Origin: Marsupella aquatica
Lineage: Eukaryota; Plantae; Marchantiophyta
Assembly: GCA_973895155.1 (NCBI GenBank)
Contig: OZ316893.1
Span: forward strand, 27,662,210-27,726,209
Direction: 5' to 3'
Length of the DNA: 64,000 bases
Numbering within the stretch: the stretch's first letter is position 1; every line of letters begins with the position of its first letter. Below the pieces are notes generated by a model that was not told the origin of the DNA, searched no databases, and was given only the letters and a program-made list of their open reading frames with translations. This document shows, piece by piece, positions 2,018 through 31,381 of the stretch. Made by a program: the position numbers and the translations under genes.

Positions 2018-5000
2018 CTAGCTGTGAGTTTGTAGTAGAGTAGATAGACGACGCATCCCGATACCATGTGTGTGATCGTGGTGAACTGAAGGTGGGAGGG
2101 GCTTAGTGAAGAGATCTGCGCGATTATCTTTACTTGCAATCCAATGAACTTGAATCTGATCGCCATGCTGTTCGTGAGTGTAGAAAAATTTGGGGGCAAT
2201 ATGCTTTATCCGATCTCCTTTGATAAAGCCTTGTGTAACTTGATCGACGCAAGGGCGATTGTCCTCGTAGATAGTTGTTGGAGCGTTGAGAAGTGGACGA
2301 CCTGTATGTTGATTAATGTGATCAATGAGTTGCCTGAGCCAGATGCATTCACGACTTGCTTCGTAAAGGGCAATGATTTCTGCATGGTTCGAGGACGTTG
2401 TCGTGAGGGTCTGTTTGGAGCTTCGCCAAGATATCGCGGTGCTGCCTTGGAGAAATACATACCCGGTTTGCGATTTAGCGTCATCCAGGTCCGAAAGGTA
2501 TCCAACATCAGCAAATCCGATGAGTTCAGAAGGAGCATCGTTGGGAAAGAACAATCCCAAGTCAAGTGTGCCCTGTATGTATCAAAAAATTTGCTTTACG
2601 CCATTCCAGTGTCTTATTGTTGGTTGCGAACTATGACGAGCAAGAAGGTTAATAGCGAATGAAATGTCAGGGCGTGTGTGATTCGCTAAGTACATGAGCG
2701 CACCAATTGCTGAAAGATAGGGTTTTTCTGCTCCAAGTATCTGCTCTATTTCTGTGCGTTTCTTGAATGTATCTCGATTCGGGTCCAGAGATCTCAGTTC
2801 CATTGGAGTGCTCACTGGATGAGCTTTATCCATGTTGAACTGCTTTACAATCTTTCTTGCATAAGTCGCTTGATTAATAAGTATGCCGCCCTGCACATAG
2901 TCAAATTGAAGTCCAAGACAGTACTTGGGTTCTCCTAGATCTCGCATTTGAAATGTTGTTTTCAATGTTGCCATTGTTTCTTTAACTATTGTAGGTGTAC
3001 CGAAGATGTTAATATCGTCTACATAAATAGCGACGATTATGTAATCTGTGTCATGTTGTTTAAGAAAAAGACAGGGAGCAATGTCGTTATTGACGAAGTT
3101 CAGAGCTAGCATCTATGCCTTAAATCTTTTATACCAGGTTCGGCCACTTTGTTTGAGCCCATATAGGGATCGCAGTACTTGGACTGCCAATTGTTTTGTC
3201 TGTATAGCAGATCTGGGAAGTCGACTTCTCGCTTAATGTGCACTCGGCACCTGTAATTCATGAAGAACTGAAGGTTCGTTTTCATGTGCATGTTTTAGAA
3301 GGTACTCTATAGGAGTTTTCCTTGTTAACCCTGATTGTAGATCAGGGTTTGTATTATGTTTATTCTCCCCCTGAATTCGAAATGTCATTCGTGTGATTAA
3401 CTCAGGAGGAGCCTTCATGTAGATTGTAGTGTCCAATATGCCATAAAGGTAGGTTGTGATAACATCTAGTATGTTTAGTGTCAATTTGTGCGTAAGTGCA
3501 AATGCTATCATGTATCTATAAGTTATCGAATCCATCACGGGTGAGTAAGTAAGGTCAAAGTCACATCCTGGGATTTGCGTATAGCCTTTAGCAACCAGTC
3601 GTGCTTTGTACCGAATTATCTCTCCTTGAGCGTTTCTTTTCCGTGTGAAAATGAATTTATATCCGATAAGTGATGTGTGTAGAGGGGCAGGAATGACCGG
3701 ACCAAAGACTTCTCGTTGAATTAATGAGTCCAATTCAGAATTAAGTGCTATCTCCCACTGGGGCCAATCAGGCCGCTGCTGTGCCTCGTGGACTGACAGG
3801 GGATCTGGGGTGTCATTGGTGATATCCTGAGATATATCGAATGCAAATATATCATCTATAATTGTATCCTTTCGATGCCATAATCGACCAGTATGCATAT
3901 AATTGATGGATATTTCTTGATTTTCTTCTGGCTGAGTGAGAGAGTGGGTAGATGGTACCGGTGGAGGTGGCACATTCGTTGGGTTAGCTGGTGGTCGTCG
4001 TTGGCGAGGTTGGCTGTCTCTAGAGCCCAGTGGTCGACCTTGTTTTGCTCTTGGGGCAGCTTCAGTGGCAAGTTGGTCTGGTATTAGTATTCGGGCTGGA
4101 GCATTGGCCGCCTCTGTGTGTGAACGGATTACTTCAGTTGCATCATTAAAAGCGTCCGGGAGCTTTTCCAGCATCTGATGGAGATGTAATATGCGTCTGA
4201 CTTCTGCATCAGCTTGTCTGGTACGTGGATCAAGTCCCACCGGTAGGATGGTCTGCCATTGTAATAATTGTTTTCTGCCATTCTCATCGGATGGATGTGT
4301 AGTTAGTTTCGGAAATTTGTCTTCGAAAAAGGTACAGTCAAGGAATCTGGCCTTGAACACATCTGTTGTGGATGGTTCCAGGAACCGAATAATGGAGGGC
4401 GAGTCAAAACCAACATAAATCCCTCGTTGGCGCTGGGGGCCCATCTTGGTGCGTTTTGGGCCTAGGATAGGGACAAGGACTAAACACCCAAACGTCCGCA
4501 AGTGAGAAATGTTAGGTGGTATACCAAATGCAAGGTAATGCGGAGTATGGGTATTAAATGCGGAAGGTCTATATTTTAGGAGAGCAGCTGCATGCAATAT
4601 TGCATGTCCCCATGCTGTATGAGGAAGCTGTGTTTGCATGAGGAGTGGCCGAGCTATCATTTGTAGTCTTTTAATGAGAGATTCTGCTATGCCGTTCTGA
4701 AAATGAACATGCGGTACCAAATATTGGGTTTCTATGCCGGCAGTCTCACAAAAATCATCGAATGTTCTCAACGTGAACTCCCCGGCATTATCAACCCTGA
4801 GTGTCTTTATTGGATTGTCAGGGAACTGTAGCTTTAACTTGAGGATGTGTGATAAAATCCGTGGGAATACTAGGTTCCGGGTCGAGATCAGTGAAACTTG
4901 GGACCATTTTGATGAAGCATCAATAATGGCCAAGTAAAACCGGAATGGACCAGATGGCGGGTCAATCGGGCCACATACGTCAGCGTGAAGCCTTTCGAGG

Positions 5001-6637
5001 AATTTAGGAATGGAGTGAATTGTTTTAGATGTGGCTGGTCTGGTGATTAACTTTCCCTGTGAACACGCAAGACAGGGGCTCTTCAGAGATGATGGGCGCA
5101 CCCCTTGGGGTATGCCTATCGTATCCCGGATTATATTATGGTACATGTTGGTACCAGGGTGGCCTAGCCGATTGTGCCAGCGCTCTGTGGGAGTTGGAGG
5201 AACTATTTCTACATGTAATGCGTGTATGGTGGTGATGTATAACCCGGGAGGGTGGATAGGCAAGGTTTCACAGATTTTCATTCCAGGTGGAGAATGGTCA
5301 ATAATGTGTAGGACTTCACCCTCATTGGTCTTGCTTGTATATATGTGAAAGTTGTTAGCTCTTATGTCTCGGAAACTAATTAAATTTCGTGTGGCTTTAG
5401 GTGCGTATATTGCCGAGGTGATGTTGATTACTGTGCCCTGGGGGAAACAAACTGATGCGGGGCCGTGCCCTTCCTCAATATGATTATGTCCTGTGATGGT
5501 AGTTATGGCTCTGTGAGAAGCTATAATTGTTCGAAAAAAATGTCGATTTCTTAGGATGGAGTGGGAGGTCCCACTATCTACTATGCAATTAGATGGTGTT
5601 AATTTGCCTTGTGATTGTGCATCCATATGAGCAACGTGGGTTTCTGGAAGGGGTGTATCATGTGTATAAGCATGTATGTCTTCAGGAATTTCCATAAAAT
5701 TGCCTTGTGCATCTTCTGTTTGCCTGTTTATACTTTCTTTATAGAGCTTGACCAAGTGTGCAGGAGCCCGATATTCTTTTTGTAAATGTCCTTTTGTACC
5801 GCATCGGAAACAAGAGGGTGTAATAAACTTATCTCTTGGTTGTGCTTGGTAGCCTCTTCCTCGATTCCGTCCGCCACCTCCGCGTTGATTCCAAGTGGGG
5901 TCTCGCTGGAATTCTTGGGATTGTTGTCGGAAGCTCCCACTGCCTCTGTATCCTTGGTAAGTTCCTCTTCCAAATGCACGTCCTCGGCTCCCCCTGAAGT
6001 TGCCACGTCCGCGCCCCCGGAATCTTGAGGCCATAAGATGAGTTTCTGGTCTGGCTGGAGGGGCTGCACTCCCTGGTGGTCTTGTTTTAGCATTGTTGAG
6101 CAGTATTATCTGATGCTTCTCAGCGAGGAGCATATGTGATATCAATTGAGAATACCGCGTGAAATTCATGTTTCGATATTGAGAGGCTAGAACTATGTTA
6201 GTTACATGAAAAGTGGACAGAGTCTTTTCGATCTGCTCTTCATCATCCACTGGATTACCGCAGACAGCTAATTGGGAGGTAATTCGGAACAGTTCGCTGT
6301 TATAACTCGCAATTGTGCTGTAATCTTGTACTCGCAGGTTTATCCAATCGTGGCGGGCTGTCGGGAGTGATATGGTCCGCATATGATCGAAGCGTAATTG
6401 TAGTTTGTCCCATAGGACCCTTGGGTTGTAGTGATTGAGATATTGAGTCTTAAGCGGTTCAGCGAGATGGTGCCTGATTAGTATCAAGGCCTGAGCCTTC
6501 TGTTGTAATGTAGTACCTGCATCGGTTAAGGTTGTGTCTTGCAGGTCTTTAGATGCTAGATGTGCCTCCACATCTAAAGACCAAGACAAGTAATTTGCGC
6601 CATCGATCGCGAGAGCTTTGAAATGTAATTTCTCCAT
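2018..6637 (-). pseudogene. Copia gag-pol polyprotein (~1539 codons, one frame, three premature stops)
   Basis: ORFs 3233-6637, 2582-3112 and 2018-2560 share one frame, broken by TAA (3235-3233), TAG (3115-3113) and TGA (2584-2582). Motifs: zinc knuckle CFRCGTKGH, protease IVDSGTSH, integrase HNRLGH...CLAC and DDE core (HADVCGP / RVDNAGEF / NGIAES), RT YKARLVAKG, SLYGLKQSGR, YVDD, RNase H. Confidence 0.95.
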
Positions 6638-6858
6638 GATTGATCAATGTTGCAATTGGAAGTTCCGATGCTGGCTAGCTTGTAATAAGGTTCTTTGATA
6701 ATGCAATCGTTTATGGCTAAGGAGATGGTATCGTTCAAAACCTGATGGATTTCTCTCACCGAGTTCCAAGAATCAGTTCCAATCGAGGAATAGTGCTGCT
6801 GAAGTTTAACTGCGCGTCATCTGCCTCTATCTAAAAAACATTTGTCACACACATCAGC

Positions 6859-7425: not shown

Positions 7426-7811
7426 CGTATGTGAGAACCATAATACCCCTCCAAATTAAAACTACATGTTAAAATCATACATGCAAGGCAAAGCATAGCA
7501 AAAAAACACTCAAAAATACTCAAAAACAAGGCAACTAAACTCAAAAATAAACAAAACATGAGGAAAAGCAAGAAAAACTCACCAAAGGCCTTTCCTGCAA
7601 GACAGCCAAAGTTAAAGAGAAGTTACTAGAGAGAATGAGAAAAAGTGAGGAGAGCTCCTCACTTTATAGGCCCGGTCCCGGTCTGCCCCCCCCCTCCCCC
7701 ACCTCGCGAGCCGTCTCCCGGGCGGCCGAGCCCGACCCCACCGGCGGCTGCCTCCCCTCACGCGCGCTTATGGGCCTTGACCTAACCCTAATCCCGGCCC
7801 CGGCCAGGCCG

Positions 7812-8056
7812 GGCCGGGGGGGCTTTAGGGTCCGGGGCCGGGGGCTTTAGGGTCCGGGGCCGGGGGCTTTAGGGTCCGGGGCGGGAGGGGTTTAGGGTCC
7901 GGGTGGAGGAGGGTGAAGGGTCCGGGCCGGGGGGGTTTAGGGTCCGGGGCCGGGAGGTGAAGGGTCCGGGGTCCGGGGAGGGGGGTTTAGGGTCCGAGAG
8001 GGTGAATGGTCCGGGCTGGGGGGGTTTAGGGTCCGGGGCCGGGAGGGAATAGGGTC
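7812..8056 (+). repeat. G-rich ~22-bp minisatellite with embedded plant telomere heptamers
   Basis: Unit gggggc-TTTAGGG-tccggggcc. TTTAGGG occurs at 7824, 7846, 7868, 7891, 7936, 7986 and 8025, with TGAAGGG variants at 7914 and 7958. Confidence 0.95.
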
Positions 8057-8827
8057 TGGAGCCGGGTCAGAACCGGGAGTTTTACTCAGGCCGGGACTGG
8101 AGGATGTACTCGGGCCGGGACCGGATAATGCCAACCGGGAGAGTCCGGGTGTCGGCTTGCCGGTTGACGGCCTTAAAACGGCCTATTTGCCGAGCAAGTC
8201 CAAACCGGGCCTTGTAGTGCATTTTTAAACTGATGTGTACCTTTTTTTTGGGTCAAAAACGTAGACCTCCTCTTGGCATTTTTAAAATCCTAGCTTGGCC
8301 CCCAAGGTCTTGTAAAGCCAAAGCCATATACAGCTAGTGCTACTACATTAATCTGCTAAAAGATAGATTAGGGACCCACTCCACCTAAAGGTCATGGTAT
8401 TCTTTGGCTTACTAGAGTCTTTCTAGTTGTGACAAGATAAGATATTATGAATAGACATGTGGGTCCCCTTTTTAATCTAAATGATTTACAATAGGAGTGG
8501 ACCAATGGGCTAGAAAAGAGAACTCCAAGAGAGGTGGTCTAAAGTGTAGGACCAAAAAGCAAAATGCTGGGCCCCGCTCCATTTCATGTAGGATTGGTAA
8601 CATGCTAGTTTTAAAGTGCCCCCAATAATTGGTAAAGTGAACAGCACCAGTTTATCCCCAATTGATGGCCCTGGTCACATATTGGCGACCAAAAAAAATG
8701 TAAACTGCCATCAAATTAGTACCAATGTCGTCTAGTAAAGCCACCCTTAGATTTATGTTCCGGAGCTGCACCATGATGGATTTGGAGATTCACACTCCTC
8801 ATAAATCACGAAGAGAGTAGATAGCGA

Positions 8828-11400: not shown

Positions 11401-12684
11401 AAGTCTCCCCAAGGTGGCAGGAGGCCCCCCAAGAAGCAGGAGCGAGTTAGGAAGAGGGCGTGGCAGGCCAGGGGCGGCAGGGCATTAATGTACGGGTGGC
11501 CCCAGGGCCGGCAGGTGTCCGCGCTTCATTTGCCATATTTTTTCCGTATTTCAGTCCGTGTCTGAGCCCATTTCGCCATATTTGGACACTGTTTACCTTA
11601 TTTGGCCGTATTTTCATATTTCTGCCGTATTTTTCCGTCATTTGGGTTGTTTCCGCGCAATTGCCGCAGCGGGAAACTTCTAGGAAGCTTCCTTTGTACC
11701 TGTTACAGCAGAAAATCCGAGAGTTGATTTATGCACTTGGCTCGGCACCATTGTGACCCCCCCCCCCCCCCGGTGGTTGCGACACCATAGCTCGATCATC
11801 TGGAGTCCATTTTGATCATCAATTACAGGGTTGGATGCGGTGGCTCGGGCTACGAGAATCAGTTGTCTGAATACGATTCTGACACATTTTATTTTTTGGC
11901 CATTTTTTAGGTGGTCTTGTTGCATTCGTTGGCAGTAGTTGCTGCCAAGTGATTGTTGTGCCGCAGGAGTGCCACAGCTTGCTGCATAGCCAAACTGGAG
12001 ACAAGAGTGACTCGCACTGGTGCCCAATTTTGACCCTTAGAAGCAAAAGGAGACATTGTGTTAGTTGGGAGCGGCACTGGCATAGACCCTGGCGTGGAGG
12101 AGGCGACGCGATTACTGTCCTGGTTGTCATTGTATTCGCGTATTAGTCCCTACAATTGGGACATGGAGCATTCCATGGATAGTCGGATTTGGAGGTTTTC
12201 GGGAGATGTTGGCACCATGGAGTTGCCACATTTCATTATGGAGTTTGAGCGGTGGTGTGATCAATAGAAGTTGCGCAGCACGTCATTCTCCCCTTTCATG
12301 GCATGGCGAGCATTGTTCCAGCACTTGGAGGGGTCACCCATGCATGACTATGAGGAGTTCCAGACGCAAGTGGTCTCCAGACTACGTCTCACTCACAGGT
12401 GACGACGTGTTCTCTCGCATGTCCTCAAAGGAGGAAGAGGGTGCTAGCAGCTCTAGCACATCATTGCCAATACCTAGGTTCAACCCGTTGGTGGAGTTCT
12501 TCAAGGTGTTGAAGAAGAATTACCAAGGTGTTCGCGTGGACAAGTTGTTGAGCCTCCAGACATTCAACAGGATGGAGGGTGAGAATTTGTGCAAGGCATA
12601 CACGCGTATGAGGCGGTTGATCAGTACCACAGAGGGAATTATTGATGCCTAGGCTATCTAGATTTGGTACCAGGCCCTGGATAA

Positions 12685-13039
12685 TATTGAGCATAGATGA
12701 CACTCGCAACGGTAAGCACATGACACATCCAACGCATAAGTAGTCGACACAAGAGATACGTGGTTCACCTCCTTGAGGCTACGTCCACGGGAACACACAA
12801 GAGAGCTTTACTGAACTCTAAGCCCGTCGGCTAAACCAAGTCTCCACAGTGTAAGCTCTCCTCATCTCTCAAGTGGCTCCATAACAATGAGCCTAAGTTC
12901 CACTTATCCAAGCAAACACCGCTTGGCATATAGTGTGCATCCTAGTTAATCTAACCACATCTCCGACTACGGTTAGTCTAACTACGGTTACATGTCGTAA
13001 CCCTAGACCTTGCGGGAGACCTTGAGTAAATACCTAATA
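12685..13039 (-). mobile_element. Solo LTR (copia-like, 355 bp) inserted in gypsy gag, 5-bp TSD GATAA
   Basis: GATAA at 12680-12684 and 13040-13044. Termini are TATT…AATA. The internal tacgtggttca…ctacgtccacggg motif is typical of antisense copia LTRs. gag-like coding resumes after it. Confidence 0.85.
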
Positions 13040-13651
13040 GATAAGGGTTCGGTTTTGGGTATTGGCCACTAATGAGAAGCTGTCAGTGGAGAAGGTTTTC
13101 CTGCTTTCTGATACCATTGACATGAACCGGTCAGAGGAGAAGGTTGCACGACCCTTGGATTTGGCAAGAAGTCCCCTAGAGGAAGTGCTGCTAGTATCTG
13201 GTGGGCAGAAACCACATTGATTGGGAAGTGTGCCAGGGCGGGCACAACCCAATGCTCCGGATGGTGCTGTTGTTGGTGGTAGGAGAGCAGTAGCACCCCA
13301 ATGTCCCTTTTAGCCTTCTTATGCCACTCAAGTGGAGTGCTGAAGCTGTAAGGGACCTAACCAGCGTGACTGCCCTAGCAGGAAAGGTCCACCACATGTG
13401 TGCAGAGCAGGGAGGAGCATCCCTAGACAGCCTGATCTTAGGCGTTGTGACCATTACCACAGAGATGGGCATACTATTGAGAGATGTTTTGAGCTGCATC
13501 CCGAGATGCGGTTTGGTGCTACGCGTAGGGGAGTTGCTCCTAGAGGTCGTGGAGGCCCCCACCCTGGTCATGGAGATGACAGGGTAGTCCCCGCAGCCGA
13601 TGCATAGACCACTGATCCAGCAGCAGCCACCAGGATCCAAGTGGTGGAGCT

Positions 13652-15011
13652 CGTCACCTAGCGCCCTCACCAATCCCGACACCCATGCCTAAGTGCCCTT
13701 GGTGCTCCAAATGCCTCCACGGAATACCTCGAGCAAGCACCTTGGTGTCCCTTGCACCACCCGCGGCCACTTTCATACGAAGCCGCACTTGCTCTCCAAC
13801 TCGACCGCTACTCAACGGTCCTCACAGTCTGCACAAACAACCAAGCACCGCGGTAAGTAACCCTTCAGGATCTAGAACCCCCCAAGTCTAGCATCCTAAC
13901 TCAAGCTCAACAGACATTGGTAAATAGATCAACGATAGGTACTCCCGACGCCATAAGCTGGAACCATAACCCATGCCCACTGTTCCTCCAGAACAACTCC
14001 TTCCTTGGGCACGGCTTGAGTTCCCCCTTGTACCTATCCATCACCAACTGACCGCCCTGACCTCAGGACATGCTCATGGCCCAAATAGCGTAGCTTGTCC
14101 CAACACGTCGGGACCATAATAGCCCCGACTCTGGCAACAAACTCCCAGTTTGCCCCACTAATGGTCTAGGGGCCAAGCACCCTTGGAACTCATCCTCCAC
14201 GCCTACTTGGCCTTGCCTCTCCAACGAAGCTCTCTTGGGAGACTGAACGCGGCTTGGCTGCTATTTTTGCAGGATTTGGCAAGCAAGCGAGATAACACCT
14301 GCAAACCCGAGAACCCATGGCGCCCCCAGACCTAGCTAATCTCAGGAAGACGTGGCCCTCCTTGAGAGCCCTGTTGGGAAGATATCGTCATTTCCATTTG
14401 GCAGTTTTCCTTAGTGTTGCGACCGCCGTGGCTCACGACTTTGGCTCACCCTTTGCCCCCAGGGAGACACCACTCCCCTCATATATGCTTCTGGAGACCT
14501 ATCACCCCCGGACCAGCTTTGGTCCCTAAACTTTTGGCCCCCAAACCGGACCCTATCTCGCATAATGGACTTTCTCGTTAGGCGTTCGCAAGCGGAGTGC
14601 CTTAGCCCATTGTGATTGGGCCGACCCAGTGCTCATGCCTAGGCCCTCATCGCCGCTTGGGGTCCTCGATCGGTCAAACCCGGATCGGGCCGTGACTCAC
14701 GCCCCAAGCGTTCGTTGCCCATGGCATCAACTCCATTGGCCTTGGGCCCAAGAGGAGCTCACACTCAAGCTCTCAAAACTCAAAGTCCGTTCGGGGTCCG
14801 GACAATCAACCTTGAGCTCGGCCCCTTTCCCCTTGACCCGACCAGCTCTCAGCTAGCCTAAGTCCTTAAAGTGTGTGACCACCAGCTTGGCGCCTTGCCT
14901 TTGCAAGTGCCACGTCTCATTGCCCGCAAGTCTCCCCATGCTAAGTCCTCCTCGGATGGCCTATCTGGGCCTGGACCATAAGGGAGCTCGGCGTCGGAGT
15001 CAGCAACGCCG
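13652..15011. mobile_element. 1.36-kb nested insertion, probably a solo LTR, TSD GAGCT
   Basis: GAGCT at 13647-13651 and 15012-15016 (GGAGCT also matches over 6 bp). The insert is C-rich and non-coding, starts cgtcacc (tgtcac-like) and interrupts the gypsy gag-PR linker. Confidence 0.7.
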
Positions 15012-16510
15012 GAGCTAAGTGTTAAGGTATTCGAGTTCTATGACTATCCAGGAGTTGGATAAACAGTTGGCAGCAGCCAATTTGGCGTTGCGGGCCCCTA
15101 GCAAAGGTGAGGCCTCTAGTTCCCGCACCATGGATAGTTCACAAATTGCTCCTGGATTCAGCGACTTGGATTACATGTGCGGTGTTGCACAATTAGACAG
15201 TGGTGCAGCTATCACTAGAGCAGTGGCTAGGGTTGCTGAGCCACAAGGTGTTGCCGTGGAGTTGGATCCACAACGAGAGGAGGCCAGTCGTCAATAGAGA
15301 TTACCAAAGAGTTTTACATTGATGGATGTTGCACGGACTTCTACTCTGGCACCCATTGCTGATAGCAGTGGACCTTTTGTCCACTCTTGTGGCCACGTGG
15401 AGCCACCCAGCATTGATCTTGACACGGTAACTAACCCAGTGTTTGGGGCGGCTAGAGCCTTGCATTGTGTCAGGTTCCATTGTTTTCTTGTGCTCAATTA
15501 TCTTCCCTTGGAGTTCCTGTTGCAGATGTGTTGCGCCAGGCAGCTGCATTGTATGATACTGGAGCAATTTTGGCATCTAGCTGTGACATAGCTGGTCCAC
15601 AGGTTGGCCCAGATGGTGCAAAGTCCCACCATTCTTTATTGATAGATGCTGAGACTTCTTGGCAGGCTTCTACCGCTTGATTGAGTGAGCTCCCTGCCAG
15701 ACCAGCCATTGATCAGAGTATTGTGACTCCCGGTGTGGTTGTGGTGGACAACCGTGCTGGTGTTTTTACATTGGTTGGCCCTAGTGGCATGGTGTATTGC
15801 CACCCCGTGTATTGTTGGATTCAGGTGCACAGTCTCTCATGCTGGGGAAAGCAACTGTCCAGGGCTTGCGCTTGAAGAAGGCTGAGGTGGACCCTTGCCC
15901 ATTTTAGATTCATACATCTCTTGGTGTCCAAGAGAAGGCACAGCACATGATGTGAGACAACCTCACTATGAGGTTAAATCCCCACCGCACTGGAGATGAT
16001 TTTGCCTTGAAGGTGAGAGTCGTTGTCACACCTGCAGAGTCAGAAGGGGGTGTCGTACTTTACCCTATGGGCTTTGTGTTGGATTACTGGCAAGAGATTG
16101 TTCACTATCAACCAGAATGGCAGTCTGGTGATGGTAGGAAGAGTGAGCTACCAGTGCACTACTTCCTGCATTGGACTGAGCCGTCATCGGAGAAGGTGAT
16201 TAGTTTGTCAGCTTGCGCTGGAGCTATCACCTGGCCAAGCAATCTCTTGGAGGGTAATGCCCATGCTACAGACATTCCCGTAGCCGAGGAGTTTCCCAGC
16301 TCCTCAGGTAATCACCACATTCCTGTTGTACCATAGGTATGGGGTTCCACTCCTAAGTTACAGCAGCATGTTGATTCCTATGTACAGGCAGCATGGAGTG
16401 AACCATTTGCCCCTTTAGAAGGGCCACGCGTGATGGATGACATTCCCAGTTTGGTCACTATGTCCCCGTTGGACACCACCCCCATTTTGTGGACATATCC
16501 TGCCGAGGGT

Positions 16511-17440
16511 ATTTTCTTGTTGGAGTTGTTTGGTGGCATGAGCACTGGTTTAGCTGCTATTTTATATGCTGGTATTAGAGTGCAGTAGTATCTCTATGTG
16601 GAGCAAGATGACACAGCCCAACGTGTCTCACTACGTCATGTTGCTCAGTTGCATCAGCAGTTGCCTGATTTGTTACCCCTATCAGCTATCAGAGGTTATC
16701 ATCACTCTTTGCCAATAGACATCTCACTTTTGGGGGCGCTGAATTTAGTACGCGTTGGTGAGATTCACCTCATGATTGCTGGTTGGCCATGCCAGGGCCA
16801 TTCCTCTGCTGGGACAGAATCTGGTCTCAAAGACCATTGTTCTCACATGTTTTGGGAGATGTTGTGTGTGATGAGGTTTTTGCAGGAGCAGCAGCATGTC
16901 TCTCCCGCCTACATTCTGGAGAATGTTCCCTTGTTGGGTGATACTAGGTCACAGATGGTGGCTAGTATGCACCAAGTGAGGTCCTGGTTAGGACCTGCTA
17001 TTTTTTAGGTGCTGCTAGTGTCGGATCGATGGCACATCATCCACAATTATGGTGGACCAACTTGATGTCACCTGAGGTTTTGCAAAGGGCATATCAGCAC
17101 ATTGTGCGGCCTGTTGGGCTCACCGTGGACCATATTTTGGATGTTGGACGTCATGCACAGTTGGTGCGCCACAATGATCGCTCCCCATTAGCAGTGGTGA
17201 ACCGGGTTGGTTAGCCACGTGTAGCACTACCCACTTTGGTGAGTTTTCCCTCATCGTATGCTTATCGTAATGGTGGACCGGGGTTAAATTGGGATTCCCA
17301 GCATAGCGAGCTGACGGAACCTATTGCTGATGAGCGTGAGCGTGCTATGGGATTTCAGACTCGCCCCACAACAGTACCCTCAATGACTAAAGTAGGACGC
17401 CGTATATTTTGGGTCAGGCTATGGATCTTAATTATTTGAC
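16511..17440 (+). pseudogene. DNMT3-like C5-cytosine DNA methyltransferase domain within gypsy pol
   Basis: Motif I LLELFGGMSTG (16517-16549); II YLYVE; III DIS; IV IAGWPCQGHS (catalytic PC 16787-16792); V GLKDHCSHMF; VI YILENV (ENV 16919-16927); VIII GSMAHHPQLWWTNL (~17023-17064); IX EPIADERERAMGF; X LGQAMDLNYL (~17409-17438). Stops at 16586 and 17212, frameshifts near 17005 and 17408. Confidence 0.92.
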
Positions 17441-17803
17441 TTAGATTGTGAGCTTAGCCTTGGCACAGCAGCGCCGATTACAATCTTCTATAACACCTCA
17501 ACATGGATGCTCTTCCTCTATTGGGTCCTTAGAGATCAAAGCAGGGGGCGACAGTGCCACAAATTGTCATCCCTAGACTTCATGGGGAATCAGTGGAGAG
17601 GCCAATGGGCTTTCTTTTTTGCAGTAGCATGGTATTGCTGCTCCTGGGGTTGCAGCATAGCAACCACAGTCGGCGTTCTCTGCACCTTCTGCCAAGGCTA
17701 CATTGACAGTTGGAAGCCAACTATTGGCCCCAAGATCACTGGAGGTGAGAGATGACGTGTACAAAAGTTTCTACGGAGTTATGGAAGTTGTTTTGCTTTC
17801 AGC

Positions 17804-18450
17804 ATGCAAGATTTGGGCATGTTAAAGGGACCAGGCATTCGGATAGATTTGGCAGTTGATGCGCCCATCTTTCGGAGACCATATCGATATTCAGATATAG
17901 AGAGGGCACTGATTCAGACAAGGTGCCAGGATTTGTTGGCAGCAGGACTTGTGAAGAAGTCATTTGGTGAGTACACTTCTACCACTGTGATGCCAGCAAA
18001 GAAGGATATGCATGGCAATTGGATTGACAGAAGGATGTGTGGAGATTATCGTCCAATTAATTGGCAGACTAAGTCTGACAGGTATGCCATGCCCACACCG
18101 GTGGAAATATTTGATGTCATTGGGCATGCAAGAGTGTTTAGCACATTGGATCTCAAAGCTAGATATCACTAGCTGCCTATCAGGATTGGTGACAGGCAGA
18201 AGATAGCATTCTGGGGGATTGATGCTCATGGGAAGGAATGATATGTTGTATCAGTGGCTATTCTTACAGTTTGGATTGAAGAATGCGCCAGCTGAGTTTC
18301 AGAGGGTCATGGATTGGATTTTGGCAGACTTGGATTTTGCCAAATGTTATATCGATGATATTATTGTCTATAGTGACACCAGTTATGGAGGAGCATGTTG
18401 TACATTTGCAGCAGGTGTTTGAGTGGCTGAGAGAGCATGGATTGAAGCTA
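17804..18450 (+). pseudogene. Ty3/gypsy reverse transcriptase (truncated)
   Basis: ORFs 17804-18172 and 18219-18422. YIDD at ~18348-18359. Confidence 0.93.
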
Positions 18451-18919
18451 CCTGGTCACTGAAGCTTCAATCCTGATGTAAGTGGATTTTGAGGTCTTGC
18501 ATAGACCTGGTCACTTACATCAGGATGCTGATGGATTGAGTTGCAATCCCTGCCCGAGCCAGAGGGATTTGACAAGAGCACGTTGGCATGATGAGGCAGA
18601 CGAGAAGATGGTGTCAGGTTGGCATGCTTCTGCTTATTTGTGCTTGTTGCACAGTGTGGATGGTCTTGGTGCAGTGGCATCTTTGGAGAGGCCCAATGCA
18701 GACTTTGTGGATCCAAAGATTTCTAGTGAGGAGTCTGCAGAACATGATATTCATGATGATGCAGATGTTGTGATGTATCTGCGCACGAGCAACATGCCAA
18801 ACAGGGTAACTGCCAAGGAGAGAGATCGGATCCTACAACGAGCTAAGAGGTTCAGATGGGAAGGATCTCACTTGTTGAGAGTTTCGGATGATCGTAGAGT
18901 GCGGTTGGTACCTCCTTTA

Positions 18920-20318: not shown

Positions 20319-20500
20319 GCTTGGGGGTCTCACTATATGGGGACCTCCCCATCACCTACAATGTTTTTAGGCCTCGGACCCCCTAAAATGTAAGAAAATT
20401 AATTATTTTTTAACCCCTATAAAGTTGGAATATTCTTGGAATATTCCAAAATTTGGATTAAAAAGACCCTAATATTCTTATAAGTCACAAAATTGAATTT
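20319..20500 (+). repeat. Non-autonomous repeat homologous to 45445-45936 (inverted)
   Basis: Shared blocks gcttgggggtctcact, catcacct, ccctaaaatgtaa and ataaagttg.aatatt…ccaaaattt.gattaaaaa.accctaat.ttctta.aag. Confidence 0.75.
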
Positions 20501-20571
20501 AAAGGACCCTATTATTCTTCTACAAAAATTCTTAAGTCTTCCCTTAGAACCAATAAAACGACCCTATCCTT

Positions 20572-21284
20572 TGTCGCACGTGATATGCCATTTTTGTGAA
20601 AGTGAAACCCCCGAGCCCAAAAGGTGTATACTTCCTTTTAGTTTTAGGGCTAGCTGTAGTTAGCGGGACCTAACCACTAGCTAGGGGGCGGTTATGGATT
20701 TTGGCGTACATGTGTTGTGTGTCGTGTGATTATCTTTTTCTTGTTTACATGGTGTGCCGCGATGTGAGTTGTGTATGGATGTGAGACTGTCCGCACGATA
20801 GCTGTCACCCCATGTTGCATTTGGGTTGCAACTTTGTTGGTTGCACATGTGTTGTGAGTTTGGGAGGGTGACCTAGTATAGCAGGTCACCTGGTAGGGGT
20901 GACCTCTTCGCCCAAGTTACCATGTCTTTGTGCCATGGGGGTATACCTTAGAGAATGAGGGATTAGCTCCTCATTCTTCCAAGTTGAGCCTCCCGACACT
21001 AGTAGAGCTCATGTGAGTGTGGCTATGGTGAGAGAGAGAGATTGTATGTCGGTTGGCATGTAGAGCGACATTAGCAGGGTTCTGCTATGTGTATAGACTT
21101 TAAGTCCCGCATGGCTAGCGGGTGAGTTTGGCTCGACTTAGTGATACCTTGCAGCGGCGTCCCATTTTGCAAGAGATTGTTATGGATTTTGGCGTACATG
21201 TGTTGTGTGTTGTGTGATTATCTTTTTCTTGTTTACATGGTGTGTCGCGATGTGACTTGTGTATGGATGTGTGTCCGCACGACA
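20572..21284 (+). mobile_element. LTR-like or TRIM-like segment with TGTCG…CGACA ends and an internal ~105-bp direct repeat
   Basis: 5-bp inverted termini. ttatggattttggcgtacatgtg…gtccgcacga at 20692-20798 and 21180-21282. No TSD (tcctt vs catta). Confidence 0.55.
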
Positions 21285-23528: not shown

Positions 23529-26500
23529 TCACTGTCTCTTTCCTGAAGGTTTATAAGATGTACTTAATTTGCCCTTTGATGCCTGGAAGAAACCACACTT
23601 CGTCAAAACATCTTAAATATATTTTTGTAAGAATATGACAGCCCAAATCAAAACGCACGAATCCGTGAGCTACTGTAAAGAGGGAGGGGGGATGAAGGGG
23701 GCAATGAACAGAATCAATGGAAAGAAAGATGGTAAGAGCATACCAATTTGGATTTCCTCTTGTTCTTGCCCTTTATCCTGTTCTTTGGGGGCTTCAACTT
23801 GTAGATGCGAACCATCCAATGGTGAGTTGTAAATACCTGAGGTGAAATATAGGTGAGTAGAACGAGTAAAAGAGCACCTGCCTGAAGGCAAGGCAGGCGA
23901 GAGAGGCTAACACAGATTCCCGAGGTCATCCCAAGTATAGAGACTAAAAGACAACGAAGCAGGTGATTTGGGAGAGAAGTCCAAGCAAATGGCTCAATAG
24001 CAAAAGCAAAGAGCATTAAATGCACGATCAAGACAAACTTTGCAGTCAATTACTGTCAACAACAAAAATTCAACTCAGTCGAGTCTGGGCAAATGACAAG
24101 CAACTAGTTCAGGTTTTGACGCACCTCCTCAAAGTGAGTAAGTTTGGAAACTTTCTTTCCGATCTCAGTTCTTCTGACTCGATCATATCCCTTCCCGTCC
24201 ATTGTTGCTTCTGCAAATCTGCAACAAAGCACCCAAAAAAAATACATCATTCCATTTCCTTTTCAAAGAAGATGGGGACATTATCCGATTATATACACCG
24301 CGGCGGATGAACTTGGATATGCAGATTGCGGCCCGACACAAAATGAGGTAGTCATCAAGTACATACCTATAGTATGACAATTTGTACATCAGACAATTTA
24401 ACATTGTCGGTGTTGCTTGTGCATCAATACGATACTGTCCATCCCGCTGTTCAACATTCCGTTATCTTTGTCAGGAGACTTCGAATAGCTTTATCATCAA
24501 ACGACATCTTGCAAAATGGAATATGAACATTTTTGAAGCCATGTGCTTCAGTGCTTTAAACCTTACAAGGTAATCAGGCTCCTTGATGTGAGGAAAAACT
24601 CCTCCCCCAATGCGGACCATCCAAAGGAACTTATTAATATCATCACTGGGATATCCTACTAAACCTGCAGCCAAAATTTATCGACATCGTTAGGAGCTTT
24701 TCTTTGTAATTTGTTTCTACAGAATTCAACCAGATATAATCTTTAAGTTCACAGAGTTTATTCACTTATTATTACGATAAAACAAAAACAAACATGCATG
24801 CTTTCAAAGAAGTGTTCATACCTCCAAAAATGACAAAGACATATTTGACATCTAAACTCTGGTATATCTCCCAAGCCTGCCGCTCTGGGGAGGACATTGC
24901 CATGCCTACAGTTGCTATGTGTGTATTGTTCCAAGTGTTGTTGTCTACAATTACTGTTCTGTTTGCCATGGCAGTTGCTTGGTACCCATAATCCCACCAT
25001 GAGGCAACCTGGAGTGAACACAATACCGTCAGACAGTGCTTGAAATTTCCTTGACACCAAAAGCAGACGTCATAAATACATGTAAACATAAGAGACAAAT
25101 GTCCGGCGCCTATCAACCTATCCCTGCTTAACTATGAAACCTAATGAGCTGTCTGTTGGTTGTTTGCAGATGGTCATTACTACTTGACCCTGGTTGAGAT
25201 TGCATGACACAAGCAACTTAAGAAAGACAAAATTGCACCTTATCATTTGGGTCAGTGTTGTGACCGAGCCAAGCGTAAGCCTCTCGAAAATCATCAAACA
25301 CGTGGACACCGTCGGCAGTATGGCTGGTGAGAACAACAGATGGAGCTGAGTAGGCCTCTGCAGCCGCCCACACGCAATGTATCTGCAGTAGTTTCAAGAT
25401 AGCACTATCAAGATTTTGTTTCCCTTTCAATTGAAGGTCTGCAATTTGGGACCCTTAAGTTTGGAGGGATTAGGTGGTAATTCCTTCACTATCAAGCCAG
25501 CGCTATGAGCTTCTAGACAGTAACAGTGTATAAATGGACACTACAAATGAACAATTGGTTTACTTTACAATTCAATCAATCTCTGTGGGGCTAGGCTCTG
25601 CAGACGGTAACAGGTCTACTGACCACATAAAACGAAGTCAATAATATAAGTAACGCAATGGCAACCGCAGAAGCCTCCAGAGGCAACAACTTGGCTGTCT
25701 TCACTTTGGGTTTCTTGGGAACAATCTTCTCATTCGTTTCCCTGTCCTTCTTTCGAATTCTCTTGGCTGATCTCTCCCTTAATGAATCCTTTCCTTTCTC
25801 ACTACCACTCTTCAGTTTAGTTGCTGTCTCGGCAATCGCTGAGGTTGCGGCGAGGATTGGTGCTAGATTGGTTTCAGTCTGCAAAACCAGAGCAACAGCC
25901 AGTTATTCTTGTTCGTGCCATGCTCGCCACCAGCAACGGTTATTTAGTCCAAGGGAAATGAGCTCTCCCCTATCATTCAAGAAATCAGATCATCAAATAT
26001 TCTGCAAATTTCCAAGGGACACTAAGTTTCTATCACTTGTGGTAGTTCCGAATATCAAATATTGAAAGTGCGTTGATATTGTGCGTTACGATCAGCGACA
26101 TGGCAGCGTTCAATGCGATGGCCTAAACTGTAATTCTTCTTCACCTTAACAGGTTGAGGCTCAATAGCCTCAGGAAGGTCAATTTGGTACTTGATGGACA
26201 GTGTGAACGTTGCAAAAGCTTCCGAAAGGGCAATCCCTCCCATTATACAGGCTGCTGGTGCCAGGACGAGCATCAGACGAACCTGTGCAAAGACATTGCG
26301 ATCCAACCAAAGATATCAATCCACGAAACCCACAATTTCAATAAGCAGTACTGTTGATATTGCATCCTCGTCTGTTCTAAAAACAAAGCTGTAGCACTTA
26401 ATAGAGAGAAATCATGCACGTGATTGTGAAGACTCCATCCACACTTCCAACTCCTACACAACGAAAAGTACCAGCCTGATACATAAGGAAATGTCACAAC

Positions 26501-29500
26501 TTAAGGGCTTCAGCAGGACCTTGATAATCTGGCCCATCCAAACACAGATGCACTTACCATGACACCAGAGAAGTATACAGCTGTGACCAGGTACAAGACT
26601 GCAAATGTGCTGGCATCTGAAAGGGGTAGGAAACAAGCCTGCAAAAGACGGACATGTAAATATCAAAAAGTCCTCCTCGGTCTCTCATTCTACATGCCAA
26701 GTTTTCAAGTCCAGTTTTACCTGGCAACTTAATGCCAAGAAATAATCTCGTTTTAGGACATGAATCTCATTCCCTAAGTATGCTAAAATTTGGAGAACAA
26801 GTATTGGAAGACGTCCATTTTGGATTCAGTCACGAAAACGAGCAAGCTCTCCAAGAATCCCCCTATACTAATGAACTGGCAACATTCTTTGGACCACGCT
26901 TTTCTCACGGGAGTGTTTCCACCCTCTATTCAACAAATATCAACAGAGAGTAATTAAGAACCCAGAGCAAGCATCAACGACATGCGAGCCGTGAACATAA
27001 GTCACCGACGCGTCAAATGACTTACAATAATTCCAGCAGGGACCAGAAAAGCTAGAATATTGATGTCCATGAAGTATGACGGCCACGTAGGTGGTTGATG
27101 TTCACTGACACTTGCAATAATTGGAATGTACTTGCTTGCGTAGGTGCTGTAGTCAAGAACAACTTGATTAGTTAAAACTCACATTGCGGTATTGCGCACC
27201 CAAGGACCAGCAGCTGCTCTAGTATGATCAGAAGGGAAAACCCATGAAAAAAGCGACAAATTCATTTATGGTAGAAACGTTTTGCATCAAACCCGTATTC
27301 AAAACCTATATCTAGAGGTCAATTCGCCAGAAGTCCAGCTGCAAGCGAAATTTCAGATCAAAGACAAGTGCTAAGAAACTCACGGATCGAGCAAGCTCAA
27401 ACTGCGTCCACTCCAACCACCAGTAGGACTTGTGGCAACCATTGCCACCAGAACTGCCAACAAAATCAATGCAGCAGCCCTATTGTAGCAACAACCCAAA
27501 AAGTCAGGTTATTGATATCCCAATCGTCTCATGTGTTTATTCCAGTATGTTAGAGATTCCACGTGGGGAGGAAATATCCTGAAAACCTTTGCTGAAGGCC
27601 AAAAGAAGTCTATGGTATACCCAAATTCCTTCCTCTATAGATCAAGCGAGAATGCAGAAGCACACTATTCTGAGAGAGGGATAGACATTTCGTACGTGCC
27701 AACTGATATCACAATAGTCACAGCCATACGGAATTGCTTGGGTGTGAGCATGCGCTTGATGTAATAAGCCAAAGCCACCACTTGGATTATCACAAATACC
27801 TGCAGATAGATGATGCCCCAAGTTGGCACCAAGTTGACAACAAGATGAGTTAGTTCCATCCATAACATCAACAAAGCGTTAGCATAATTGGGAATTCCAC
27901 CCGACTCCGAGTAACCAAAACCACTTGCACTGAATGCTACTCCATATTCTCAAGGCCAGAGCAATCAATACAAGAGGTAAATAATGCAAGTACATATAGA
28001 CATCTGATAGAAGTCACTAGATAGCATCATTGACTGCCAAAGGATATTATGGACAGTCGACCCACATCCTGCCACTCTTCACAGAAGGTCTACAGATCAG
28101 ACACTAACCAGGAAAGATGCGAAGTGCTCAGATGTCATGACAGCGTTGAAGCCCACAACTGGGACAAGTGCAGCCAACAGCGTTCCCAATAACACCTGCC
28201 AAAGAGCAACAATAGTATTGATCAGAATAATACCGTCTGGCGAGGTAAAATAATCTATCCTTTAGAAGAGACACCTGAAAGAGGATCCAACTTCATTCAC
28301 TAATAGATTTTAACCCAAAAGCAGCTTACCAAGGGGACATATGCGATATACACACGGGATGAGTAGCGCCCAGTCACAATCAAAAGTAACACGTGCATTG
28401 GAATGAGGTTGATGATAAAAGTGTACCCGCCCCACGAACAAACCTGTATCATGTCAACGTAGAATTAACAATCACTACGCACTGTAAATACAATACAATA
28501 CAATACAATACAAAACTCTTAGGGTCTTCAGTTGTCATATTTATATCCACGTCTGCATCGAATACGTTGGCATTATGTTTGCTTAAGTCAATTGCAAGGA
28601 AAATGCGAGTAGGAAGCTAATCTTCCATACGCTTGTTCCCTGTCTGTCTTCTCATTCGAAGACAATCTAATCCCAACTCAAGAGGTACTTCATTGTATGT
28701 GAGGGGAACATCAACCGACCAACCCTCATTCTGATCTCTACAACGTCCTCAATGGAAATCAGCCCACTCGAATACGTAGATTCTCACCAAACAATATAAG
28801 AGAGTAGGTCCATACCATATAGAAATAAGCCAAGGAATTCAAGGTAGCATAAAAGAGGGAACCAGTGTTCAACGTCTGCAGCAACACACCATGGACGCTT
28901 TGTTAAAGTATGGTAAAGAAAGGTATTGCGAAAATGGCGTCCCCATGACTTCTACGGGAGCACCAGGGACAGACGAACAAAACAACACTTGGAGAGGAAA
29001 AGAAGACTCGAATTACCAGTATAACCAAAGCTCTCTGAGACCTAAGATTTGCTAGCTGTTTGCAGGAGAATATCAAGAAGGGCTGCTCTTCAGATAGTCG
29101 TAGAGACTAGTTGACTAACCCCCAAATGATGTCAGATAAGTAGAGACAGCCTGACTAATTATGATGAGAGGAAGACAACACATGGGCCTTTGAACATCAC
29201 TACTACAACGCTACACACCATATGACTAAGTGAATTTTTGCATATCGTAACCTTCGACAACATTGCCTACTGATACACAGAAACAATTTTCAAAGAAATT
29301 CCACTGACCTTCAGATATAGGTAGAATGTGAACACCAGTGCAAATATGGCAACACCCTCGTTGTCATAACTACCAGCTACAGACCTTGATATATATGAAG
29401 GAACCTGCACCGCGTCAAACAATGAGAGGAAAGTTACGTCAACAGCCTAAATTAAATAGTTAGTAAAAGAAAACGTTTTGCCATGTTGTACGAATGAACT

Positions 29501-31381
29501 CACAATGGCAAGTAATGCTGCCGCAGTAAGGCCGGCACCAACTCCTTTCACCTCCTGCAGACAACATACAGAGACATTAGCATACACAATCAAATGCTCC
29601 ACAAAAGGTACCATCAGGGCAACCCCCAGTCTACATTCAATGGAAGTAACATTTTCAACATATGGCTGGCTTGCCAACCACAGACACAAAGATTAATGAT
29701 TTTCCAGGCAATTCGAGATCTGTTTACGACGAAATAGTGCTCCCACACTTGAAATAGGCTCTGATTTTTCATTCGACAAGAATAGGAGAGTTCACAATCA
29801 GAGAGACCCGAACAGGTTCACGGTGAGAAACCACACGTGAAGACAGAAAACACAAACCTTCGTCAGAGCGTAGGCGGACCAAGCAGCAAATGCGGAGAAC
29901 ACCGGTGCAGTGAATACACACACAGTTTCAACTGATAGCGGAATATTCAACGAATTTGCAATCCTGCACACATCCAGTCGGTACTCTTTTCACATGAGAA
30001 ATTCTACAAGTTGCCTCGGTGTATATGGAGAGCTCACAGTTTTTTAAGAACTTATCCTCGTTCAATCCAAGTTTGAGCAGAAGTCCAACTGCAGGGAATA
30101 GCACATTGGCTCGGCCGATTCTATCATCCCTTACCACCACATAGTTCCCGCAGTTAGGGTGAGCCCAGGGTAGACTGTGCCACCAACAACACGACCCAAG
30201 GGATACCTGCATTACCATGGAAATCCCCAATTTTGTAAGTCTACAAATCAAAACAACACAATCGACCACCAAAAGTGGAGTGGTACTCTGATTGGTACCT
30301 ATTTATTCATGGTCACGCCACAATAGCGATAACAGGCGACGAACGAAAGTCAAGCTTACATCCCCATGTTACAGAACACACGAGCTTGGTTGCACTTACC
30401 AAGTTCTATCATCAAACCAATTCCAGAACTCGTAGATTCCAGCCTTTGAAAGATACTGGAAATCCAAAGCAGCATGTAAATAAATTGATCAGGCAAACGT
30501 CACATAACAAGAAACACGTCTCCAGCAGTCTAAGAGACCAAAGGATGACCAGAGGAAATGAAGGTCTTCATACAGAAAATGCAGAGGGCACACGAAATAA
30601 ATGAAAGTTCTGCATAAATACTTTAATCAAGGACACTAGTTGTAAGCTTAAGCTACGTGTGATAGCTTACCTGAGTGACTCTGTAGTTGAAGTAGGGATC
30701 AAACTCATGAATCACACTCTCATACTTGATCACCTGAACACTCGACGCAAATGATTAGCATAAATCCTGGCCTAGGGGTTCAAACGTAGACAAGACTCTC
30801 ACCACAAGTGTCAATTCCTCCGTCTCTGTTTTAAAAGTTTATGCGGTCATGAATCCTGGCCGTACACAATGAAATCCAGCGGAGAACTATCTTTCATTTC
30901 GTTTCATTTCGAAATCTAAGTCTGTATGCATATTATACATACATCCAAAAATCTTTCCAGTATTAAGAGTGACCAATGTATCCAGCACTAAATGCCAAGT
31001 TCTCCGTTCCTAGTTTTTAATATGGGAAAACGCACCGCGGACGGTGGCGATTTGCAATTCTGACTGCGGAAAGAGCCACAAACAGGTAACACCGACCAAA
31101 GGACGACTAAACCAATCAATTACATCAAGGTCGAGTGCATATAGACACGCATTATTGAAGTCAAACGCAAAACCAAACAGTGAAAGATCCATGAAGGGCC
31201 CCAGATAGAAGTAACTCACGGAGAAGAGGCGGATGGAGAAGGCCAAAATGCCGATGAGCATCAAAGTCGCGAAAGCAAGAATCGAAGCCCACGGACCTCC
31301 GGCTCCTCGCCTCTCGCTCGCAGGAGCACGAGGAGCAGCAGCAGTATGGGCCAGGGAGGCTGATTCTCCACTGCTCGCCAT
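23529..31381 (-). CDS. STT3A: Oligosaccharyltransferase catalytic subunit STT3A (~23 exons)
   Basis: ATG 31381, TGA 23531-23529. Approximate exons: 31220-31381, 30671-30733 ([18 protein letters not shown]), 30400-30456, 30136-30207, 29858-29963, 29503-29554, 29309-29404 ([11 protein letters not shown]), 28816-28875, 28330-28443, 28109-28195, 27697-27799, 27383-27480, 27026-27146 (SVSEHQP), 26558-26638, 26145-26282, 25625-25878, 25239-25382, 24822-25008 (WWDYG…DNNTWNN), 24567-24664 ([11 protein letters not shown]), 24368-24447, 24126-24218, 23743-23837, 23529-23582. The C-terminus (SSPE…[35 protein letters not shown]) is STT3A-type. Confidence 0.95.
28487..28512. repeat. (ATACA)n microsatellite in an STT3A intron
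   Basis: atacaatacaatacaatacaatacaa. Confidence 0.9.

Follow-up and report, generated by a model that had tools for sequence, protein, structure and literature searches.

Retroelements that carry a cytosine methyltransferase of the DNMT3 type have already been described. In the alga Klebsormidium nitens, KnitGypsy-Dnmt3 combines the domains of a gypsy element with an intron-free, unpermuted DNMT3-like domain under purifying selection, and the SymbioDIRS-Dnmt3 elements of Symbiodinium have DNMT3 domains that methylate CG in yeast (PMC5890265). Why transposons should carry the enzyme of their own silencing has been an open question since 2018, the sole gypsy example being inactive in yeast. Here we consider a 64,000-nucleotide stretch of the liverwort Marsupella aquatica (GenBank assembly GCA_973895155.1, contig OZ316893.1, positions 27,662,210 to 27,726,209, forward strand; hereafter the window, whose own numbering is used throughout), which contains a dead copy of a bryophyte Ty3/gypsy family with such a domain. 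In the reading that we think probable, the DNMT3-like enzyme of this family, made at the level of Gag, would methylate the element's own complementary DNA (cDNA), which likely integrates from a circle. With this family the question can be asked in Marchantia, a genetic model for which methylation mutants exist and in which several gene models of about 1280 amino acids (aa) keep the catalytic motifs.

The methyltransferase domain and its element

The DNMT3-like C5 cytosine DNA methyltransferase (DNMT) domain occupies positions 16505-17465 of the + strand, between the protease (PR) and the reverse transcriptase (RT) of the Ty3/gypsy element. In a Pfam scan that gave a match in 5 of the 20 window pieces scanned, its open piece 16589-17005 matched PF00145 (E 1e-8, 35.4 bits against a cut-off of 22). 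The methyltransferase motifs I-X span 16523-17429 in order, 3' of the protease motif LLDSGA (15812) and 5' of the RT, all on the + strand: ELFGGMSTG starts at 16523, GWPCQG at 16781, ENV at 16919, AHHPQLWWTNL at 17032, ERERAMGF at 17332 and LGQAMDL at 17409. The domain is disrupted by stops at 16586, 17212 and 17442 and by frame shifts near 17005 and 17405, and its motif VIII has His and Gln where relatives have Arg (200 of 205 and 199 of 203, respectively). Near 18455-18470 the end of the RT and most of the RNase H (RH) are deleted, residues 907 and 1094 of the relative P0018 aligning to adjacent window positions. With stops and frame changes in the domain, both motif VIII arginines replaced and most of the RNase H gone, the window copy is dead. 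An earlier interpretation of the letters alone (the sequence-only reading) had located all of these motifs and their strand correctly; it had also called the domain a C5 methyltransferase, which the Pfam search of the segment bears out, and the copy dead, in agreement with the three stops and two frame changes within the domain. The coding part of the element is as follows.

12163-13600 (+): gag with zinc knuckle (13446-13487), decayed and interrupted by a nested insertion; tblastn to Marchantia Mp4g09160 residues 13-361, 34-63%
15097-15800 (+): Gag-protease linker, resuming 3' of a large nested insertion; tblastn to P0006 and P0008, 39-43%
15797-16096 (+): aspartic protease, LLDSGA at 15812; the homologues P0014, P0031 and P0037 match PF13650
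16505-17465 (+): DNMT3-like C5 methyltransferase domain, motifs I-X, broken; PF00145, homologues, and the relative P0003, which is closest to DNMT3A/B by sequence and fold
17658-17666 (+): conserved stop TAG followed by CAA CCA, predicted readthrough site at the boundary of the Gag-PR-DNMT and RT-RH-integrase-PHD parts; comparison of loci
17705-18470 (+): reverse transcriptase, YIDD at 18348; PF00078
18737-19600 (+): DDE integrase (IN), zinc-binding and core domains; PF17921, PF00665
20078-20212 (+): C-terminal PHD finger and stop; PF00628, E 1.4e-8

This is the gag-PR-RT-RH-IN order of Ty3/gypsy elements with a DDE integrase, the RNase H mostly deleted here being present in relatives; at the C-terminus Pfam finds a PHD finger, not a chromodomain. 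Contig depth in three runs is raised over each of protease, DNMT and RT, although depth is no copy number and was not used as a count.

The element has been invaded in several places. A 339-bp insertion in gag (12698-13036), with a 5-bp target duplication, TG...TA ends and very high contig depth, resembles a solo long terminal repeat (LTR) of another family. Between the zinc knuckle and the protease linker lies a GC-rich insertion of about 1.4 kb (~13630-15060), where the contig depth of the region is highest and many variants have internal deletions. Near the 3' end, a 296-bp insertion (20320-20615) has an 8-bp target duplication and short inverted ends, by which we take it to be a hAT-type miniature inverted-repeat transposable element; a related inverted copy lies near 45335-45936.

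A land-plant family and two architectures

The N-terminal half of the window domain retrieved 37 longer proteins, 13 from Marchantia polymorpha, 3 from Calypogeia fissa, 2 from Sphagnum and 19 without an organism name, the best relatives being 60-67% identical to the window domain. Homologues are colinear with the window from gag (12193) through the protease and DNMT to the RT and integrase, and in the comparison of window and relatives homology is unbroken across both DNMT borders, with no sign of a separate insertion. With the relative P0003 as query, a full HMMER search identified 269 cluster representatives (E up to 1e-30). Members from Klebsormidium (KFL_013780020), Mesostigma (Mv19666), Haematococcus and Tetraselmis came from a profile search, and Hariotina from a look-up of clusters. 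From metagenomes we kept 80 of 134 confirmed loci, chosen by their DNMT, so that members without it could not appear; 76 of them form one Sphagnum-like (hereafter moss-like) family with duplicates, L034, L075, L076 and L078 being divergent. Of the 72 loci that extend to the DNMT end, 57 have the RT start 3' of it. There was no vascular-plant name in the 37 and 60 matches of searches that were word-limited and length-limited, which does not amount to absence. Viral contigs gave no match in one search and one 34% match in another.

Trees were built on 208, 45 and 30 sequences, with too-short domains omitted. The window copy falls inside a bryophyte clade (support 1.0 or 100), deep nodes having ultrafast bootstrap (UFBoot) values of 20-57. 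Two architectures can be distinguished: protease-DNMT-RT, found in the window, in bryophytes, in Klebsormidium and in Mesostigma, versus RT-RNase H-DNMT-integrase-PHD, whose proteins form a supported clade (UFBoot 99-100) that includes the chlorophytes Haematococcus and Hariotina. For the first of these, RT and DNMT trees recover the same main groups; the correlation of RT and DNMT distances (0.59) is not taken as co-evolution, because kin share both. The full RT-RH-DNMT-IN-PHD order is present in 33 of 194 proteins.

A one-off capture of the domain, or its separate insertion into this particular copy, was among the outcomes by which the sequence-only reading would itself have failed, and the window copy does have three nested insertions elsewhere. 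Against this, DNA and protein are colinear over protease, DNMT and RT in Marchantia, Calypogeia, Sphagnum and the metagenome loci, with the domain at the same position, homology continues across both of its borders, and the RT and DNMT trees share their main groups. We regard the idea as refuted by the colinear homology, with virtually no chance of being correct. The DNMT3-like domain is thus supported as native to a land-plant Ty3/gypsy family, and the land-plant range of the DNMT-bearing family is solid; the embryophyte gypsy lineage that the sequence-only reading had postulated has its relatives in gene models of Marchantia, Calypogeia and Sphagnum.

Two further observations concern the relatives. 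In a large clade (P0038, P0046, P0208, P0227 and others) the same DNMT is part of a single open Pol frame, in which it lies between RNase H and integrase, and no description of this clade was found in the accessible parts of the literature covered. Four of the 15 listed Marchantia cluster members (P0441, P0442, P0443, P0446) are on the V sex chromosome.

The enzyme

With the intact relative P0003 as query, a search of solved sequences gave DNMT3A first (E 6e-12), ahead of DRM and HhaI. Its structure model (mean predicted local distance difference test, pLDDT, 87) had DNMT3A/B first by Foldseek, and in a wide fold search reached Z 28.6 with DNMT3B (root-mean-square deviation 2.7 over 279 residues) and 27.4 with DNMT3A, as compared with 25.1 for M.MpeI, 19.1 for DNMT1 and 20.8-22.1 for DNMT2-like folds. 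The likeness to DNMT3 rather than to other methyltransferases, proposed earlier from motif wording, is therefore borne out in this relative by both sequence and fold. Motifs I, IV (with its Cys), VI (ENV), VIII (RxR), IX and X stand in the order of C5 methyltransferases together with the fold, the window copy lacking the motif VIII arginines.

The domain is under purifying selection: in the five between-family comparisons for which dS was finite, its ratio of nonsynonymous to synonymous substitution rates (dN/dS) is 0.09-0.18, similar to that of the protease, and it is 0.35-0.45 when decayed copies from a single family are compared. Of five Marchantia gene models examined (1278-1281 aa), four keep all seven motifs, so that the intact relatives suspected from the window alone do have counterparts among gene models.

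Perhaps the domain has been retained for a function other than methylating DNA, such as RNA modification or binding to the cDNA or to the attachment site. In 80 of 203 relatives motif IV has EC in place of PC, which would suit such a role, as would the behavior of the Klebsormidium domain in yeast (PMC5890265). However, the Cys of motif IV is present in all 203 aligned relatives and the Glu of motif VI in all 207, the two arginines of motif VIII are nearly invariant, the fold is DNMT3-like and not DNMT2-like (Z 28.6 versus 20.8-22.1), and SymbioDIRS-Dnmt3 domains do methylate CG (PMC5890265). We consider a non-methylating role very unlikely and retain a DNA methyltransferase as the preferred function. 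The observed/expected ratio of CG is 0.40 in the window element and 0.26 in L034, without loss of CWG, versus 0.68 in a neighboring copia element and 0.69 in a host gene region. Some points tell against methylation by the element's own enzyme: CG depletion is weak in L075 (0.68) and L076 (0.54), host MET1 would deplete CG too, and the Klebsormidium domain gave no methylation in yeast, a result that its authors judged inconclusive (PMC5890265).

A phage origin of the domain was considered and is not favored. Phage methylases have 24-31% identity to the family domain, and five of them stand apart from a group of gypsy domains and two Symbiodinium proteins (UFBoot 99, in a tree with no host DNMT3). 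PF00145 clusters in the ESM Atlas come from plants and phages alike.

A conserved stop between methyltransferase and reverse transcriptase

In the DNA, DNMT and RT lie in the same frame and are split by an in-frame stop. The window DNMT ends the Gag-protease frame and lies outside the RT-bearing one (RT homology begins at about 17705 and the RT-like frame at 17756), with the conserved stop at 17658-17660 beyond it. The sequence-only reading was right to place the domain between protease and RT, but the single PR-DNMT-RT frame that it expected is interrupted by this stop.

Among the 66 loci with enough sequence, 58 have TAG or TAA followed by CARYY at this site (frame not enforced), 3 have a decayed form and 5 have none, compared with this context at 7 of 550 decay stops inside domains. 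The context is TAG CAA CCA in the window and L034, TAG CAA TCA in L075 and TAG CAG TTA in L076 and L078; CAACCA, CAATCA and CAGTTA differ in letters and in amino acids, and all fit CARYYA. The frame 976-8227 of L076 has a single stop, at this site, and in contigs from three runs positions 17656-17667 are free of listed variants, in contrast to the flanking positions, which vary. At the protein level, the Marchantia, Calypogeia and unnamed proteins of the clade terminate 77-83 residues past the DNMT domain, and the five Marchantia proteins (1278-1281 aa) 95 residues past motif X. In tobacco mosaic virus (TMV), CAR YYA after UAG is essential for a readthrough that is about 10% efficient, and the same source mentions candidate readthrough in rice gypsy elements (PMC2754532). 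Folding of the sequence 3' of the conserved stop gave hairpins, with no shared structure among those tested.

A conserved stop with TMV-type context between DNMT and RT means that the DNMT is likely made with Gag. Judging from these comparisons, it is highly probable that UAG-CARYYA readthrough gives a minority RT-RH-IN-PHD product and that Gag-PR-DNMT is the main one; the predicted readthrough would set the dose of the enzyme relative to RT and integrase. Several observations should be set against this. The moss-like family has TAG CAA CCC, one letter off the consensus, and TAA in 16 of its loci; since 76 of the 80 loci belong to that one family and include duplicates, the loci represent five independent lineages. 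In a related clade (P0053, P0223), PR, DNMT and RT share one open frame, and therefore the stop is not needed everywhere.

Permuted ends and integration

The 3' end of the window element is composed of the following parts.

20665-20690 (+): conserved stretch closing with a G-rich, polypurine-tract-like run, 5' of repeat B; 87-89% to moss-like loci over 20645-20688
20691-20800 (+): terminal repeat B1; 93.5% to B2 over 108 nt
20793-20807 (+): B/A junction, right-end and left-end motifs opposed across 2 bp, predicted integrase attachment site; likewise in L043, L063, L068, L075 and L076
20803-21171 (+): repeat A2, the remaining LTR, with a TATA-like box near 20942 and a hairpin; sequence comparison
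21179-21284 (+): terminal repeat B2, right end of the element; sequence comparison

Self-alignment of L043, L063 and L068 gave the arrangement A-body-B-A-B, in which B is preceded by a G-rich tract, and the window 3' end, B-A-B, corresponds to this long form. Ten loci have both ends, six of them A-body-B and four with the longer 3' end. Family loci have TG...CA termini and a short target-site duplication, which is an exact 4 bp in 8 of these 10 loci. Paired LTRs, for which the sequence-only reading had suggested a search, are replaced in the family loci with both ends by A-body-B or A-body-B-A-B. The B/A junction is constant, the end motifs being opposed across 2 bp in the moss-like family, L075, L076 and the window, whereas the A2/B2 junction is different in each of the four long copies, two of which have filler; that of the window has 7 extra bases. 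The bases that follow A1 can pair with a site located 26-31 nt beyond the TATA box, over 11-16 nt in three of six loci and 9 nt in a fourth, as expected for self-priming.

In the simplest model of these comparisons, the true LTR would be B+A, with the integrase attachment site inside it. We think that integration probably proceeds from circularized cDNA opened at this mid-LTR site, and the terminal repeat required for a further round would be retained only in the long form. Alternatively, the ends could form without a circle, the integrase trimming linear cDNA internally and B-A-B arising by tandem insertion or by recombination between copies. A-body-B, the commoner form among the loci, does follow from internal cutting of a linear molecule, and repeat contigs can be chimeric. 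On the other hand, in the three A-body-B-A-B copies, as in a rearranged fourth, A1 and B2 are flanked on the outside by matching 4-bp duplications, and therefore each long copy entered as one unit; moreover, their A2/B2 junctions vary as end-joined junctions do. Formation without a circle consequently seems doubtful to us, and we keep to the circular intermediate. Weighing against the model as a whole are the A-body-B form itself, which needs no circle, the lack of a target duplication in L040 and its match in only three of four bases in L031, the lack of a priming match in two of the six loci, and the state of the window copy, which has lost A1 (self-alignment of the window found none 5' of gag) and whose own target duplication is not established.

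Position 11752, which resembles the left-end motif, was considered as the left end of the window element and rejected, its flank not being a clean match to the right one. Other gypsy fragments adjoin DNMT-bearing copies in L038 (14739-16598) and L017 (1-1896); the one in L038, with integrase and PHD, begins directly 3' of repeat B.

The permuted ends suggest an integration route unusual for DDE retroelements. Because of these ends, catalogues based on paired LTRs would miss the family (REXdb method, as given in the accessible text of PMC6317226).

A possible life cycle

From the observed gag-PR-DNMT-stop-RT-RH-IN-PHD order, catalytic residues, purifying selection and permuted ends with 4-bp duplications, we infer the remaining steps. 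Readthrough at UAG-CARYYA would yield the minority RT-RH-IN-PHD product, and the protease would release the DNMT within the particle. Self-primed reverse transcription would give cDNA with an LTR of B+A, and the DDE integrase, acting at the mid-LTR attachment site, would generate A-body-B, starting from a circle with one LTR or from linear DNA cut internally; A-body-B-A-B would result when a two-LTR circle formed by end joining is opened at the same site. The DNMT would put 5-methylcytosine, most likely at CG, on the extrachromosomal DNA, and new copies would be pre-marked as a silent host-like repeat. We give roughly even chances to this last proposal, that the DNMT may methylate the element's own extrachromosomal DNA so that copies arrive already marked as silent.

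Instead, the enzyme could act on host chromatin, at the insertion site, on sibling copies or on competing elements; Gag-level output would then supply it in trans and limit the family's own spread. That the DNMT precedes the stop together with Gag, and in the main product is not fused to RT or integrase, fits such a role, the PHD finger suggests chromatin reading, and host benefit and insertion-site effects are among the options in de Mendoza et al. (PMC5890265). Yet the sister clade has the domain between RNase H and integrase (the 33 of 194 proteins above), tying the DNMT to the cDNA complex, and we consider action on host chromatin unlikely, leaving the element's own DNA as the preferred substrate.

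A broader proposal is more tentative, and we would sooner doubt it than adopt it: that an old green-lineage Ty3 clade, spanning liverworts, peat mosses, Klebsormidium, Mesostigma and chlorophytes, might combine a readthrough-packaged DNMT3, methylated circular cDNA and mid-LTR DDE integration. If true, a DIRS-like life cycle would be run by retroviral-type enzymes, missed by paired-LTR finders and with its unbroken methyltransferase frames annotated as Marchantia host genes. Gene models of the family can inflate counts of DNA methyltransferases in bryophyte genomes.

Other features of the window

An element with a 1136-aa open frame lies at 2021-6643 (-); by its motifs we take it to be copia-like. 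At 7787-8060 there is a degenerate 22-23-bp tandem repeat containing TTTAGGG, the telomere unit of plants. Segments at 23700-31400 (-) and 36500-37600 (+) have, by motifs, what we assume to be STT3-like oligosaccharyltransferase and methionine aminopeptidase-like exons of host genes. A gene for a kinesin-like calmodulin-binding protein occupies 51870-59800 (+); its exon 52300-52686 is 98% identical to that of Calypogeia fissa, 88% to Marchantia, 82-83% to Sphagnum and at most 75% to the listed angiosperms, which makes the host a leafy liverwort.

Comparison with known systems

The literature, with subscription journals and Repbase outside its coverage, yielded no report of land-plant copies, of the conserved stop or of the target duplications. 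Marchantia and Sphagnum have no match in the accessible parts of three supplements of PMC5890265, and the accessible text of three bryophyte DNMT3 papers (PMC10952607, PMC6453930, 10.1101/2021.02.12.428880) has no mention of such elements. 'Streptophytes' are named for DNMT-bearing elements in PMC12344493 and 10.64898/2026.05.21.726589, whose supplementary trees could hold land-plant sequences.

Among described systems, KnitGypsy-Dnmt3 is the nearest. It has DIRS-like A-coding-B-A-B repeats according to the legend of Fig. 4c (PMC5890265), to be compared with L043, L063, L068 and the window 3' end, and Klebsormidium KFL_013780020 shares the order zinc knuckle-protease-DNMT. The host is an alga in the one case and a land plant in the other, and according to the authors the DNMT lies in one frame with RT and RNase H (PMC5890265), whereas the bryophyte family has a stop; the Klebsormidium model P0112 and four relatives also terminate, 10-11 aa past the domain. 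The bryophyte clade is 37% identical to the Klebsormidium model, a comparison in which deep nodes are unsupported (UFBoot 20-57) and no Klebsormidium RT was included. Readthrough, target duplications and an internal attachment site are not described in the accessible text on KnitGypsy-Dnmt3 (PMC5890265).

SymbioDIRS-Dnmt3 is likewise a retroelement with a DNMT3 and A-coding-B-A-B repeats, but it has a tyrosine recombinase instead of a DDE integrase and its DNMT lies within Pol (PMC5890265); its domain is very distant from the gypsy domains (branch of 1.3-1.9 substitutions per site). Membership of the bryophyte family in the tyrosine-recombinase DIRS/PAT elements is rejected, given its rve integrase, its protease and its 4-bp duplications. 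Cellular DNMT3 enzymes of plants and animals (PpDNMT3b, MpDNMT3b, human DNMT3A/B) share motif order and fold with the family domain, and true DNMT3 is retained in bryophytes (PMC6453930); the family domain differs from these enzymes in being intron-free and inside Gag-protease, and has about 23% identity to human DNMT3. Tcn1 chromoviruses of mosses resemble the family in their predicted self-priming (PMC6317226) and Gypsy-7a_cRei of Chlamydomonas in the PHD finger of its Gypsy polyprotein (PMC9940879); by description both differ in having near-paired LTRs and no DNMT (PMC6317226, PMC9940879), and the chromodomain of Tcn1 was not seen in the window element. The TMV-type UAG-CAR-YYA readthrough has the same stop, six-base context and 3' polymerase part, with the difference that it is only predicted here, verified plant cases being in viruses only (PMC2754532). 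The retroelement DNMT3 itself was thus already known from KnitGypsy-Dnmt3; the land-plant family, the predicted readthrough site and the permuted ends with their target duplications are additions to it, the last two more surprising than the first.
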